A stretch of 64,000 bases of DNA from a virus (taxonomy: Duplodnaviria; Caudoviricetes), in the IMG/VR virus record IMGVR_UViG_3300037400_002350, positions 1-64,000 of that record; one strand, given 5' to 3'. Each line of letters begins with the position of its first letter. Position 1 is the stretch's first letter. Positions 4,486 through 12,216 of this stretch are shown one piece after another. A model generated the notes under the pieces. It searched no databases. It saw only the letters and a program-made list of their open reading frames with translations, and was not told the DNA's origin. The translations under genes were made by a program, and so were the position numbers.

Positions 4486-4623
4486 ACAACTAAAACTCAG
4501 ATTATCTTTTCAATAATACTCAGAGACAGGGGGAGAACAGCTGCTCTCTCTGTCAAAGAGTATAATTTTAAGGACATGGAGTTTAAGTATTCTTGTCTGA
4601 TCAATAAGAATATTTACAATTGA

Positions 4624-4875
4624 AGTGTGTGTGAGGTAAACTGTTTGGACGAGGGTTCGATTCCCTCCAGGTCCACGTTGGCAATGCCAGCAATTTTTGC
4701 ATAAGCCCCTTCGGGGGCAATTGGGCCTGACATGGTTTTGACAGCAGTGGAAGTAAACACATTAAGCACTTTAATATAAAATTAACTGGCAATATTAATG
4801 TCAATGACTACACCAAGCTAGCAGCTTGATGGTTCTTACTAAGATTTAAGTCACGTGCTAACTACGAAAGTGAGG
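4624..4875 (+). ncRNA. ssrA: Circularly permuted (two-piece) tmRNA; tag (A)GNINVNDYTKLAA*
   Basis: T-arm GAGGG-TTCGATT-CCCTC and 3' acceptor CAGGTCC-A (4651-4675) lie before the 5' acceptor GGGCCTG (4723-4729, G3-U70 pair); D-loop TGGTTTTGAC; tag frame 4788-4829 follows TAACT; outer ends approximate. Confidence 0.88.
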
Positions 4876-4877
4876 AT

Positions 4878-4927
4878 TGGAAGTTGTCTAATTTTGGAGG
4901 CTTGGGGTTCGAATCCCCGACTTCCAA
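4878..4927 (+). ncRNA. tRNA-like mini-element (acceptor stem + T-arm, no canonical D or anticodon arm)
   Basis: TGGAAGT/ACTTCCA 7-bp stem; T-arm TGGGG-TTCGAAT-CCCCG; 18-nt connector. Confidence 0.65.
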
Positions 4928-6045: not shown

Positions 6046-6142
6046 CTAAGCGTTTCGGTCACGCAAACAGGAGTGACACCTTAATAAACCGAACTTTCAG
6101 TAAAATTCCTTCTGAATTTAAAGAGGTATAATTTGTTTGATT

Positions 6143-6703
6143 ATGCAGAATCCTAGAATCACCCAAGAAGAAATTGGGATAATCAAAAAGGCTCAGGCTG
6201 GTGATATCACCGCCTTTAACCATATATTTAAGAAGTACAAGGGTTTTGTCGATCACGTACTATATCAGTACATAAAAGACAAAGATGAAGCAAAAGACAT
6301 GACCAATATTGTATTTCTGAAAGTATATGAGAAACTCTCGTCATTCAAAACCTATGACTCCTTTGGAGGATGGTTGAGAATTATAGCAAATCGCACTGCA
6401 ATTGATTATTTGCGTAGTTTAAAAGACAAGGAAGTAGATTTAGGCACAATCGATGTTAGGCCAACATTGGATACCTTATTCTGCAATAGGGACGATGATG
6501 TTGTAAATCATATAACCTATAAAGAATTGTTACAGGAGTTCAAAAAACTCCCAGAAACAACTCGCCGAATCTTTGAATTATTCTACGTAGAGAACTTAAC
6601 TGTAGAAGCGATTAGTGAACAGCTGAGTATCCCAACAGGAACTATAAAGTCAACGTTATCACGGACACGAAAGCGAATTAGAAAAACTTTTAAAAACGTG
6701 TAA
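6143..6703 (+). CDS. ECF-type (sigma-70 group 4) RNA polymerase sigma factor
   Basis: AQAGD..AF, region 2 (DMTNIVFLKVY...FGGWLRIIANRTAIDYLR) and region 4 HTH (LTVEAISEQLSIPTGTIKSTLSR). Confidence 0.92.
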   Translation: MQNPRITQEEIGIIKKAQAGDITAFNHIFKKYKGFVDHVLYQYIKDKDEAKDMTNIVFLKVYEKLSSFKTYDSFGGWLRIIANRTAIDYLRSLKDKEVDLGTIDVRPTLDTLFCNRDDDVVNHITYKELLQEFKKLPETTRRIFELFYVENLTVEAISEQLSIPTGTIKSTLSRTRKRIRKTFKNV

Positions 6704-6705
6704 CC

Positions 6706-7095
6706 ATGGAAATCTTACTTTGGATTGTTGTTGCATTCTTGCTAGCGTTAGCGATAGCTCGCTATAATGAAAGTAACAAAACGTTCTGGATTCTATTCAT
6801 CTCTTTGTTGATTGGAATCGCAGGAGGTTCTGTGTATAGTAAACTTACGCAGGACACCCAGAGTGAGCCTAATTCGTATGAGGGAGTATCTCCCACACAA
6901 GCGTCTCCATCGCAGTCAGACACATGTCTTTTGGCAGACTTGACGACAGGAACACCAACGTGCTATAAGCCAGAACTTGTGAGTCAGGAACATACTCCCG
7001 ACGCATACGAAGTACAGCTTACTCCAGTAAAAGGCCATGTCACGGTGGGCCTTAAACCACCAAGATTAGCATTTGAGTTTTTCAACACAAGTTGA
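6706..7095 (+). CDS. Membrane protein (2 N-terminal TM segments, low-complexity tail); possible anti-sigma by position
   Basis: Two hydrophobic helices; starts 2 nt after the sigma gene. Confidence 0.7.
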   Translation: MEILLWIVVAFLLALAIARYNESNKTFWILFISLLIGIAGGSVYSKLTQDTQSEPNSYEGVSPTQASPSQSDTCLLADLTTGTPTCYKPELVSQEHTPDAYEVQLTPVKGHVTVGLKPPRLAFEFFNTS

Positions 7096-7176
7096 CTGAC
7101 TATACCCAATAAATGCTGACAGACAATTAACGTAGTGTAACTACAAGTATTAACAATTTAAATTCACATTATCAAA

Positions 7177-8550
7177 ATGGGAAAGGAAACAAAAAAGAAT
7201 CCCCCAAAGGCTCCACAGCCAAAGGGAGAACAGAAGACGACCGTTATAGAAACAAAGACGTTTGAGAATCTGCCAAAGATGGCAGCTGAAGGTATGGATG
7301 CAAATCGTACTGCTGACACTTTGACAAACGTACGTCGTTATTTCCTTGACGATCCACAGGCTGCTGCACATCTTGGTATTACTCAGGATGCTGTAGACAA
7401 CGTTAACCGCATTGCAGCCATAGGCTGTGCAGCTCTTATGTTGCATGAAGTCGTACGCGGTAAGTCTGAATGGGCTGGTTCAATGAAACGTGCAGAACTT
7501 GCAGCAGTTCTTGAAACCGCTCCAATGCTCGGATTCACATTCGATCAGAAACTGTTACCATCTATGCAAGGTGATGCAGAAGAAATCGTAAATGTTCCAG
7601 CTAACGCTATTACAGTTAGCAAAGAGACAAAGGAGGCTATTCAGGCAGAAGCAGCAGCAGAAGAAAAGACCGTAGCTAAATCTCCAGCAGACATTAAGTC
7701 TGAGGATGAGTTGAAAGAAACTCTCTTACACTTCCTTAGTGAAGTAAAGAACGGCTACGAAAAGTTTGCAACCGTTATTCCGTTCTATCGTGCGTATCGC
7801 AAGATACAAGCAGGTGACGATAAAGAGAAACTCGATAAGATCAACGAACAGACCGACGTCGAGACTCTTCGCGAGATTACAAAGTTGGTAGGCAAGTGTC
7901 CATTTACCTTAAACGGTCAGGGACATTTCATGCTCATGCAGACTCGTTTCTACAAGAGCCCAGTTCCAGCATATTGTAATTTTCGTAACGCCTCTCGCAA
8001 TCGCAAGACAGGTGTTTACGCCATCAGCGACGAAGAATGTGCATCTTATGTACGAGTTCTTATCGAATGGGTTATCTCAACAGAGATTGCTAACCTTAAG
8101 GCTGATATTGAAGCCGCTAAGGCTAACATAAAAGCTTTGTCTAAGGACAAGAAAGCCAACGAGAAAGCAATCGAAGCTGAGAACGAAAAGATCCAGAAAA
8201 AAGAAGAAACTATCAAGCAGTATGAGGGTGAGGTTATGAACATTCTCAATAACCCATCTGCAGATTTTGCTGAAAACATCGTAAAACTGAAACGTGAGAA
8301 GGATCAGAATATGACTCGCGCTTGGGGTGTAATAGTAAACAGCTATGTTGACTATAACTTCAAGGAAGTCAACCAGGAAGATCTCGACCACAATGTTCAG
8401 CAGTGGGCTGGTATAATCACCAATTATTTCCGTCCAGTATCTGAACAGCTCAGCAACTACAGTGTTGCCAACATCATCTCGCCTCGTCCAATTTCTGAAA
8501 AGAAAGAGGAGACTGCTAACAAAGAAACACAGGAAGAGCCAAAAAAATAA
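7177..8550 (+). CDS. Hypothetical 457-aa protein with a C-terminal coiled coil
   Basis: Long ORF with biased codon usage and a strong A-rich leader. Confidence 0.85.
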   Translation: MGKETKKNPPKAPQPKGEQKTTVIETKTFENLPKMAAEGMDANRTADTLTNVRRYFLDDPQAAAHLGITQDAVDNVNRIAAIGCAALMLHEVVRGKSEWAGSMKRAELAAVLETAPMLGFTFDQKLLPSMQGDAEEIVNVPANAITVSKETKEAIQAEAAAEEKTVAKSPADIKSEDELKETLLHFLSEVKNGYEKFATVIPFYRAYRKIQAGDDKEKLDKINEQTDVETLREITKLVGKCPFTLNGQGHFMLMQTRFYKSPVPAYCNFRNASRNRKTGVYAISDEECASYVRVLIEWVISTEIANLKADIEAAKANIKALSKDKKANEKAIEAENEKIQKKEETIKQYEGEVMNILNNPSADFAENIVKLKREKDQNMTRAWGVIVNSYVDYNFKEVNQEDLDHNVQQWAGIITNYFRPVSEQLSNYSVANIISPRPISEKKEETANKETQEEPKK

Positions 8551-8611
8551 GTGCTACCATTAAGAAATGTTTGCACTTAATTGGTAGCATCTTCCATAAA
8601 AAGCAAACACC

Positions 8612-9031
8612 ATGAAGAAATTCAGTAACATCATAGGATGCTTATTGTTCCTTGTAATAGGTGTGGGTATATCTCTGATTACCCTATCGCCACCTAAAAC
8701 GGGATACAAGACGTTGAGTGCTGCCAATACGACTCCAAGTCTAATTGGTTTTCAACAGTTTCCTTTCACCATTGGCAACGATGTGAAAGAAAAGGAGCAG
8801 GTTGTTATTCATGATACTATATATCGTGATAGCATAAAGTATGAACTTAAACGTACTCCTTATGTAGTTGTAGTTGCACCAAAGCCAAAACCTGCTGACA
8901 CTGTCACAACAGATACTAGCGTCCTTCCAAAAGAGGCTAGTCCTGATACGACTTTACATAAAGTAAAGATTCCAGTATTAGTTTCTATTAATGACAGCAT
9001 AGTCTATGCAGACTCTGTGAAAGTGAAATGA
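8612..9031 (+). CDS. Membrane-anchored hypothetical protein
   Basis: N-terminal TM helix; repeated DT/DS-hydrophobic motifs. Confidence 0.75.
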   Translation: MKKFSNIIGCLLFLVIGVGISLITLSPPKTGYKTLSAANTTPSLIGFQQFPFTIGNDVKEKEQVVIHDTIYRDSIKYELKRTPYVVVVAPKPKPADTVTTDTSVLPKEASPDTTLHKVKIPVLVSINDSIVYADSVKVK

Positions 9032-9037
9032 CAATGA

Positions 9038-9975
9038 AGAGGTCTCATTAGCCTCAGATTCTGTCAACACTTTATAATTTACTTGACCTGAGAATATGTA
9101 TACTCTCACTGAGAGAAGAAGCACAAATGCGGTGCGCAAAAGGTAGGGTGGAAGACATTAGAGTGTGAAAAGCTCTATTGTATAGGGGAAAGCGTCGCAA
9201 TAAACCCCTTTCTGGTCTGTGAGAACCGTCTGGTGACAGTAGTCAAGAGAAGACGCGTAAATCTCAAGATGAGTAAAACTATTGCCGTATCGGACACACT
9301 GGTTGATTGTGTATAAAACCAGCATAACGTAACACGAGTCGAAACATGCTTGGCCGAGACCAAGAGAAGTCCGCTGTATGCAGATACATATCTAAGGCAC
9401 AGCATCCGAAACAAGCGTGATACACATTACAATGTCCACATCATAGTGTTCTAGGAGGTCCAAACTCCGATATGAAGGTGATAACCGTATTAGACCATAA
9501 GAAACTACTTATGGAATGTATCGTAAATATGTTGCCTATGTAAGTCCAGTCCAGTGCAAATCTGGTGCCTCTCGTTGCCACGCGTAGGGGATCTAGTTGG
9601 TAAAACGGCTGATATAATATGGAATACTGTACAGCTTTGGTCGTTAGAGCAGTATAAATAAGACAAATGACCGGATGGAGGATGCAGCTCCATATGCGAC
9701 GAGAGACCGCGTACAAAGTCTGACGTGAACAGGGAATTCTTTGGACAAGAGGAACCTGATAGATTAAGAAATGCTTAGTCTATATATTAGTGTGTGAGCT
9801 ACTAAAAGCCTATTTCATAATATTTTTTGGTAAACTGTATTGACCAGCACATTCCAGTGTTGTAAATCTCTCAGTTTTCCAGTGCAGCATGAAAATAGTA
9901 TGTAAGATGTATGTTTCAACTATACTCCATTTGCATTAGTCAAATCTGATGATGTTGTTCATATAAGCACTGCAT
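9038..9975 (+). ncRNA. Candidate large structured ncRNA (domain 1)
   Basis: No credible CDS; long-range helix ACTGAGAGA(9108-9116)/TCTCTCAGT(9867-9875); CTCTCGTTGC/GCGACGAGAG; many hairpins with GNRA-like loops; boundaries approximate. Confidence 0.6.
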
Positions 9976-10019
9976 ATAAATATAATGTGAAACAAAACCA
10001 AACAAATCATTAATTTAGA

Positions 10020-10880
10020 ATGTCCCCCGATAGGGCCCCCTTTCGTTGTATGAAAGAACTGAGGTCGGGAAGTTCGAGTGCCAACCGTAACTGTGAAAAA
10101 ATTAGATAGAATAGGTAGTTTAGGGTATGTAGCAGCAACTACATAAAACGGCGAGCCTATAGAATCGTATACATTTAACTGATGGGCAGCTTACCGTAGC
10201 CATTAAACGCAGTGCAAAAGCGTATGCAGGTATATTACTATCCCCTGTCTCGGGATGTGTGATAAGCAAGGTAGGTGGGTGACAAGGAGCGATGTATGGG
10301 TTGAATTCCCCAGTGTTCGTGCACTATAAACAAGGACGGAAGTAAATCCTAGAGTCAGAACAACCGTAGGGTCTATGATGAGTTCTGGAGCTCTGAGACC
10401 GTTCGATAATGAAACGTTGTGTAGTTACGTCGATATGTAGAAAAATACACTGAGCACGGTAGTGTTACTGTTAGGCTCATAAAATAATCAGAAGCGCACC
10501 AGGAGAAATATATCAGAATCAAACACAGGAAAATACAGATACGATATACGTCCACATCCGTGGACTTTCTCCAAAGACATATTGGTTGTATTTTGGAGAT
10601 CTCTCAACTAGTGAACCCTCCGCGAATCCTGAATCATCAGAGCGCTTAGTGGAGGTCTCCGAGATATTTTTTGAGTAAAACAAATAATTGCTCAGTTCTA
10701 GCACTTGAGTGTGCATTTTGGCATTCAAAGCTTTGTCAAACGGCTTGCTTATGGGCACAGATGACCATATCGCTTGGTCCCCGTCATGTTTAATCCTGAC
10801 TGCTATAATTCGCGTATGCGTTGCGACTAGGTGTCAATATGACTATGTATAGTCGAAAGCGTGGCAATGAAGCCAACCAA
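10020..10880 (+). ncRNA. Candidate large structured ncRNA (domain 2)
   Basis: Long-range GAGTGCCAA(10076-84)/TTGGCATTC(~10718-26) and CGTAACTGTG(10086-95)/TGTAGTTACG(10420-29); more than 10 local hairpins; boundaries approximate. Confidence 0.55.
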
Positions 10881-11005
10881 ATAAAGAACAATAGAACGAA
10901 GAGCAAAATATAAAATTTTTTAAAAAGGCAAAGTGTGGGCCAATCACACATATTACAATAATTTTTCGTTGGTCACATCAACGACGATATCAAAAAGGAA
11001 AAATT

Positions 11006-11623
11006 ATGGGAAAAGTATCAAAACCAACAATCGAAAATAACCGCAAAGTCTTTATGCTTGCTGGTGGATTGCTTGGTACAAGTATCTACAAAGTAGAAGC
11101 TCGCTCATGCGATGCAGGTTGGGAAAACAAGAACCTGAAGTTCAAAACCGAAAAGACTGGGGATTTGTTCCTCAACCGCGAAATCAAGCGTTGTGTCATG
11201 AAAGACTTCAACGTAGTGACAGTAGAAGCAGATGAGACGTCTGGTGACGGCTATGTTTCTCCAAACGCTAAGCTCGTTCTCGACGACGAGTCAACAATCA
11301 CGCTGCCTATCGCAGGCGATTTGTCTTCAATCGGTAAGGTTGAGGAAGACGCTATGCTGAAGGCTTTACGTGGCGACAAGAACATTTTCTTCGACAACGC
11401 AAAGAAGACACACGAAGAATGTAAAGCACGCAACGATGCGAACATCCGCTACGTTGAGGCACTTATGGAAGAGCTCAAGGGCATCAAGCAGTCTTTGATC
11501 ACTGCTAATGTCAACAACGAGAAACTCGTGAAGAAGTACGAGGAAGAGCTCGTAAAGAGCGCTGCTCTTGTTCCAGACCCAAACGAGAAGATTCACGTGC
11601 ATGTGGAAATCCCACAGGACTAA
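11006..11623 (+). CDS. Hypothetical protein
   Basis: 205-aa ORF, biased codon usage. Confidence 0.8.
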   Translation: MGKVSKPTIENNRKVFMLAGGLLGTSIYKVEARSCDAGWENKNLKFKTEKTGDLFLNREIKRCVMKDFNVVTVEADETSGDGYVSPNAKLVLDDESTITLPIAGDLSSIGKVEEDAMLKALRGDKNIFFDNAKKTHEECKARNDANIRYVEALMEELKGIKQSLITANVNNEKLVKKYEEELVKSAALVPDPNEKIHVHVEIPQD

Positions 11624-11634
11624 TCTAGGCATTT

Positions 11635-12216
11635 ATGAGTACGCAATTAATCTCTAGCACAGCAAAGTGCTATATTCAAGTGCTACTCTCAGACCCTCGA
11701 ATTGCAGAACGCGTATTTGAGAACCACGAAGACAAGGAAAAGTACAAGATTTGTACTGTCAATGACACTGGTACAGTTATCATGGGCAAGACACGTTTTC
11801 GCTGGTGGAACAATCTGATTAAATGTCAAGATAAGATACAGTTTATCGACTTCGCTCTTCGGGTATGGAGCGCTTTAGTAGATCTTTCTAAGGGCCTCAA
11901 CAAAGAGGCCGTTTTGAAAGGTCTGTCCCAGGAGATTATCGAACAGTCTGTTCGTGATCGCAAATATGAAGATGTCGTAAATCGTTTGTTCGATTGTTGG
12001 CGCTTCGTTGCACAGGATAGTTCTGGTTTCCAGAAACCTGCGGTTATCAAAGATATTCCACAGGAGCATCACGTGCATGTAGCGCAACCAGTTGGACACA
12101 ACATAATATTACACATCAACGGTAACGAAAAAATTATACCTATCGTAGATAGTGTTGGTGACCCAATACATCTCGGGCTTAAGGTCGGCTTCACAGGAGT
12201 AGACCAAATTTGGTAG
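11635..12216 (+). CDS. Hypothetical protein (TAG stop)
   Basis: 193-aa ORF; shares an HVHV motif with the C-terminus of the upstream protein. Confidence 0.8.
   Translation: MSTQLISSTAKCYIQVLLSDPRIAERVFENHEDKEKYKICTVNDTGTVIMGKTRFRWWNNLIKCQDKIQFIDFALRVWSALVDLSKGLNKEAVLKGLSQEIIEQSVRDRKYEDVVNRLFDCWRFVAQDSSGFQKPAVIKDIPQEHHVHVAQPVGHNIILHINGNEKIIPIVDSVGDPIHLGLKVGFTGVDQIW

Follow-up and report, generated by a model that had tools for sequence, protein, structure and literature searches.

The 64-kb stretch of DNA analysed here (the window) is the first part of a complete virus record of 100,968 bp. As shown in Table 1, two groups of genes on the + strand enclose a gap (9032-11005) in which the ORF check of the window found no reading frame of 100 aa or more. 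The DNA of this gap matched crAss-like phages only, mostly annotated Oafivirinae, and the DNA polymerase showed 68% identity to that of cr131_1; from these two results we infer that the window phage, a complete crAss-like phage, belongs to the Suoliviridae and probably to the Oafivirinae. Outside the gap, Rfam found only a permuted tmRNA and a partial tRNA in the window. The tmRNA (4586-4920) is circularly permuted and carries a tag peptide according to ARAGORN and Rfam, and it is also present in the Boorivirinae locus L055. The - strand genes from ~24 kb to 93 kb of the genome were broken into short ORFs under table 11, and a close relative (L200) needs TAG=Gln. TAG recoding is known for Suoliviridae and is probable in the window phage.

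Table 1. Features of the RNA locus and its flanking genes, in window coordinates.
Position	Strand	Feature	Support
6137..9031	+	Upstream cassette: ECF sigma factor, 129 aa protein, 457 aa helical protein, 139 aa protein	
9040..9975	+	Domain 1: separate covarying structured RNA module, found with domain 2 wherever the locus is complete	
9975..10014	+	A-rich linker; AACATGTTTAAC in many homologs, degenerate in the window	
10015..10870	+	Domain 2 (homologs: 802-996 nt) of the large structured RNA	Limits deduced from conservation
10018..10074	+	5' module: conserved internal-loop strand of G-U-C-C type (10022-25), short closing helix, helix 10026-31/10064-69, hairpin 10040-43/10053-56 with UUGUA loop	Covariation 10029/10066, 10043/10053
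10077..10331	+	Core kept across subfamilies	Cross-subfamily 24-pair alignment
10364..10416	+	Conserved module: helices 10370-73/10397-400 and 10380-83/10390-93 between conserved single strands	
10420..10695	+	Variable periphery with exchangeable, lineage-specific hairpins	
10701..10783	+	3' module: hairpin 10701-04/10711-14, self-complementary hexamer 10728-33, helix 10752-55/10780-83, hairpin 10763-67/10775-79 with conserved 7-nt loop	
10963..11005	+	Probable leader of the downstream gene: conserved hairpin and purine tract	
11006..12216	+	Downstream cassette: 205 aa protein (beta domain and long helix), 193 aa protein	

The annotated genomes showed a fixed gene order around the gap, namely ECF sigma factor, ~125 aa, ~460-570 aa, ~135 aa, a gap of 1.9-2.5 kb, ~200 aa and ~185 aa, and this order was common to all five of the five Suoliviridae subfamilies (Oafivirinae, Boorivirinae, Loutivirinae, Bearivirinae and Uncouvirinae). 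The cassette is still kept where the 457-aa flanking protein falls to 25-33% identity inside one subfamily. Pattern and protein scans gave well over 100 RNA loci, and the downstream protein family comprised 267 clusters at 50% identity; three records of Steigviridae or Intestiviridae (crAss001, cr128_1 and one crAssphage record) yielded no member of this family. The scan of bacterial genomes gave six true matches, all on short or phage-sized contigs inside metagenome bins, and in the metagenome pattern scan 75 of the 76 matches were due to chance. Three RNA-carrying contigs of 98-100 kb (L312, L316 and L326), binned as Bacilli or Sphaerochaeta MAGs, are probably misbinned crAss-like phages.

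The flanking proteins were modelled confidently (mean pLDDT 85 and 79). Structure comparison of the models of the 205-aa and 457-aa proteins returned no meaningful fold match and recognised no RNA-binding fold, and the flanking proteins were blank in Pfam, PHROGs, PDB sequences and Atlas too. In reference genomes the RNA locus is unannotated or filled by spurious ORFs. Hypothetical ORFs annotated inside it number up to eleven per genome; those at L004:3976-5984 (Dulem virus 42), L002:4215-4721, L006:2979-3461 and L193:4888-5325 are non-conserved and probably spurious.

An alignment of 40 non-redundant Oafivirinae-type copies of domain 2, with a mean identity of 55%, was built by sequence alone. 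The top covarying columns stacked into helices (10763-67/10775-79, 10701-04/10711-14, 10126-29/10142-45, 10040-43/10053-56 and 10370-73/10397-400), with further stacked covarying helices at 10029-31/10064-66, 10091-93/10311-13, 10753-55/10780-82 and 10077-81/10321-25. As a null, independent columns were simulated on the tree (our own parsimony-based procedure, 12 replicates) for 35 sequences with both domains. The null maximum was ~27; scores above 25 were reached by 27 pairs where 0.25 were expected, and scores above 30 by 10 pairs where none were expected, and 18 of the former and 9 of the latter were at least 75% complementary. Covariation exceeded this null in domain 1 and domain 2 alike, and four pairs of domain 2 exceeded its maximum (10704/10711, 10767/10775, 10043/10053 and 10179/10287).

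The structure also holds across subfamilies. In a core alignment of 24 sequences, 24 pairs were 95.9% paired against 19-63% in slid controls and 15 of them had two-sided changes, figures that are inflated by the structure having been chosen on that alignment. The helix that closes the core switches by subfamily: AGTGC/GCACT (Oafivirinae), ACTGC/GCAGT (Loutivirinae) and AAGC/GCTT (Boorivirinae). The supported helices held 185 G-U pairs against 43 A-C, and the + strand RNA is therefore the constrained molecule. A coding role was rejected because the indels ignore the reading frame: their lengths left a remainder of 1, 2 or 0 on division by three in 791, 478 and 393 cases, with no preference for multiples of three. 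The median longest stop-free frame was 92 codons.

Domain 2 almost certainly has a conserved secondary structure under selection. As judged by comparison of sequences, it is a + strand non-coding RNA module of ~850 nt that folds independently, and a core feature of the Suoliviridae. Examined for the marks of large ornate RNAs, it was found to be longer than 500 nt, multi-branched, covariation-supported and non-coding. The proposal of the initial annotation that a large ornate RNA domain lies here is thus backed by family-wide conservation, compensatory changes, strand asymmetry and the lack of a coding signal, and the multi-branched region that it described coincides with conserved structure at ~10015-10870. 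Conservation as DNA only, without compensatory changes, which it had put forward as the opposing case, is not what the homologs showed.

The 5' module contains a motif retained in Louti-, Boori-, Beari- and Uncouvirinae. The core is built of helices 10077-81/10321-25, 10089-93/10311-15 and 10169-74/10292-97 and an arm at 10179-92/10273-87, with a conserved internal loop between the first two helices; its loops include a GCAA hairpin (10126-45), the loop CUGUCUC (10244-51) and a T-loop hairpin (10298-10310), which had already been drawn from the window and is supported across homologs. Motifs flanking the conserved module downstream of the core are present in Louti- and Boorivirinae too. For the invariant unpaired loops, no partner was found within the RNA. 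A small hairpin with a CATTA loop was observed at 9041-9053, at the 5' end of domain 1, where nearly all Oafivirinae have it. It also occurs near the 3' end of domain 2 in many Oafivirinae (L002, L012, L046 and L071) and elsewhere in other subfamilies, within domain 2 in L044, L055, L190 and L191, and is possibly a mobile tertiary, protein-binding or processing module.

The long-range architecture proposed earlier is wrong. Across the 40 homologs the pairing 10076-84/10718-26 was 74% paired with no covariation, its inner pairs break, and it competes with the supported helix 10077-81/10321-25; 10086-95/10420-29 was 48% paired, again with no covariation. Single-sequence folding of the window gave an MFE z of -1.48, which is not significant, and the window had 51 helices of at least 9 bp against 34-50 in shuffles; because of this z and the similar helix numbers in shuffles, the helices named from the window can be drawn in it but are no evidence. 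GACCA/TGGTC was 95% paired with compensatory changes in five of five pairs. TATGTAG/CTACATA kept its outer four pairs and only these, and compensation in GTCCAC/GTGGAC was limited to close relatives. CAGAAC/GTTCTG (45%), which clashes with the covarying helix 10380-83/10390-93, TGAGTAA (37%), GACTA (41%) and TGAGC (58%) did not keep their register in the 40 homologs, and the TCTCCAAA hairpin is lineage-specific with no conserved register. The non-conserved hairpins sit in the variable periphery, where one lineage has different hairpins in exchange for those of another.

Wherever sufficient flank was present, domain 2 had domain 1 immediately upstream. Domain 1 contains a nearly invariant 17-nt loop (9220-9236) whose closing stem covaries freely and which is common to several subfamilies; this loop is probably a key functional site. 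The two domains showed no homology, and cross-domain covariation gave no significant complementary pair, only a weak one at 9722/10618 (E ~15), by a method that is blind to invariant pairings; the domains therefore fold separately. The linker before domain 2 had been described as A-rich and unstructured. It is A-rich at ~9985-10015, but featureless it is not, since many homologs carry a conserved motif there. This motif, AACATGTTTAAC, stands just 5' of domain 2 in five records from four subfamilies, as a single copy per genome, and also in six regions of Boorivirinae, and it is degenerate in Loutivirinae and several others as well as in the window. It is a candidate promoter, processing site or protein site. 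A scan for sigma-70 promoters and terminators stayed at chance level, with no + strand terminator predicted in the region. Our judgement leans slightly towards two mature RNAs, and a single RNA of 1.85 kb has in our view just under an even chance.

A search of Rfam with gathering and E-value thresholds gave no credible hit in the gap of the window, even with E as high as 10, and no match in the gap of any homolog locus scanned. GOLLD (RF02032) gave no match in the Rfam scans and none at E<=10 in five phage genomes, a search in which the controls themselves gave sub-threshold matches only; ROOL (RF03087) gave none in cmscan and none in five whole genomes, where its model had no positive control. 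A search of the freely accessible literature, including a keyword search of crAss papers, found no description of the locus. The viral screen of Fremin 2023 reports candidates of 29-151 nt, among which fragments of the locus could be hidden. The giant structured RNA locus of the Suoliviridae is real and apparently undescribed.

The locus belongs with the large ornate RNAs, and its tandem two-module form and fixed protein cassette are what is unusual about it. GOLLD and ROOL, whose function is unknown, are likewise large ornate RNAs of phages that combine a conserved core with variable regions, and GOLLD can exceed 800 nt (bioRxiv 10.1101/2024.12.08.627333). Unlike them, typically near tRNA islands, the present RNA is found in one phage family with a fixed protein cassette, and always in tandem with a second, unrelated module of ~930 nt, ~1.85 kb in all. 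OLE resembles it in being large and ornate and in lying near genes whose products are predicted to be membrane-anchored; OLE has a palindromic kissing loop between molecules, for which domain 2 offers a candidate at 10728-33. It differs in that the Suoliviridae locus has no Rfam match, and OLE is encoded on the chromosome of Bacillota. In bacteria and phages, few known non-coding RNAs exceed 500 nt, and what the ornate ones do is a long-standing question. Here two unrelated giant modules, together about twice the length of GOLLD, are kept at one locus in all five Suoliviridae subfamilies, with fixed protein genes as candidate partners.

The best explanation that we can offer, held tentatively and at somewhat less than an even chance, is that domain 2 acts as a self-assembling scaffold RNA like GOLLD and ROOL, with domain 1 and the cassette proteins. 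The RNA would be transcribed along with the sigma-factor cassette during infection, T-loop and GNRA contacts would lock a rigid core while the periphery stays exchangeable, and domain 2 could oligomerise through a symmetric loop-loop contact at the hexamer 10728-33, as in OLE, GOLLD and ROOL; the scaffold would probably work together with domain 1 and the co-inherited cassette proteins. In the 40-homolog alignment 24 sequences have AAGCTT as the hexamer, 5 have AGCGCT and 1 has AGTACT, while most of the remaining ones show shorter or wobble forms; it is among the best conserved palindromic sites and is the one that changes between different full palindromes. Switching of this kind has served to recognise bridges between molecules in OLE and GOLLD, and GOLLD, ROOL and OLE form RNA-only oligomers through kissing loops (bioRxiv 10.1101/2024.12.08.627333). 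The switching at 10728-33 may thus be read as moderate evidence of an intermolecular contact, coming from few independent events, one of them with a one-base register shift, at a site not clearly conserved beyond Oafivirinae. The scaffold reading is further supported by parallels to GOLLD and ROOL in size, in the location in phages and in the pairing of a conserved core with a variable region that resembles a linker. The missing RNA-binding fold in the two flanking proteins tested counts against it, as does the fact that the function of GOLLD and ROOL is itself unknown. A bolder version, which we regard as rather unlikely, is that domains 1 and 2 form one ~1.85 kb RNA or an obligate two-RNA particle and assemble with the cassette proteins into a new kind of phage-encoded RNP machine, which might catalyse reactions on tRNA-like substrates and would be a core feature of a whole family of abundant gut phages.

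Next in standing, yet unlikely, is a regulatory role, in which the RNA would be a decoy sequestering a host machine (ribosome, RNA polymerase, sigma factor or defence protein) or a giant cis leader of the downstream genes. Its fixed place behind the ECF sigma factor and directly ahead of the conserved leader hairpin would suit this role, as would invariant loops left free of an internal partner. No target was identified, however, and Rfam gave no 6S-like or riboswitch match; as for a leader, two kilobases of multi-domain structure far exceeds the known cis leaders.

A still less likely reading is that domain 2 is a highly diverged RNase P-like RNA, which would bind the tRNA elbow and process phage tRNAs, the permuted tmRNA or tRNA-like elements. 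Four short motifs (a GAAGUCC-type strand; an AGUGC helix strand followed by CAAC; a UGRAA loop; and GCAC..UAAAC) follow what we take to be the order of the conserved regions of bacterial RNase P, which is a lead only, and T-loops are presumably common to both. The genome has a permuted tmRNA, and in several Louti-, Beari- and Boorivirinae a bulged-U partner of the first motif lies ~400-425 nt downstream. Against this, the models RF00010 and RF00011 found no match at E<=10 in five phage genomes, while the positive controls were detected. No conserved P4 pseudoknot was found: the window has no strict P4-like partner, none is consistently placed in Oafivirinae, and the candidates elsewhere lack strict homology. 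The topology differs from that of RNase P as well, since a local helix closes the internal loop that holds the motif, and domain 2 is twice the size.

A self-splicing intron, or a ribozyme descended from an intron, is a very improbable reading of the region. Like group II introns it is large and has a few short words, its 5' end and a GUAG..UGAGAAG stretch resembling what are presumably group II words, and an HNH gene lies near the locus in cr53_1. But no group I or II Rfam match was obtained at E<=5-10 in the window and seven homolog loci, no domain V was recognised, and no gene is interrupted; the RNA is always intergenic and present in every complete cassette seen, unlike a mobile intron. 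In cr53_1 (L197:4579-6390) the gene 3' of the RNA has roughly double its normal length and the HNH endonuclease gene comes next, which suggests an insertion.

A role as DNA, such as a replication origin or packaging site, is hardly credible: the region is non-coding and conserved and has a palindromic linker motif, but the excess of G-U over A-C on the + strand and the RNA-type GNRA and T-loops speak against it, and the GC skew turns at ~24 kb and 93 kb, away from the RNA locus. The cumulative GC skew minimum at ~93 kb lies near a 770-bp ORF-free gap (93257-94028), which is a better origin candidate than the RNA locus. Elsewhere in Suoliviridae genomes, the DNA polymerase gene of cr118_1 (L405:11001-13288) is split in two by a gap of ~370 bp, possibly an intron, and RAGATH-22 and RAGATH-20 were found at L055:224-389 and L049:13704-13805, respectively.
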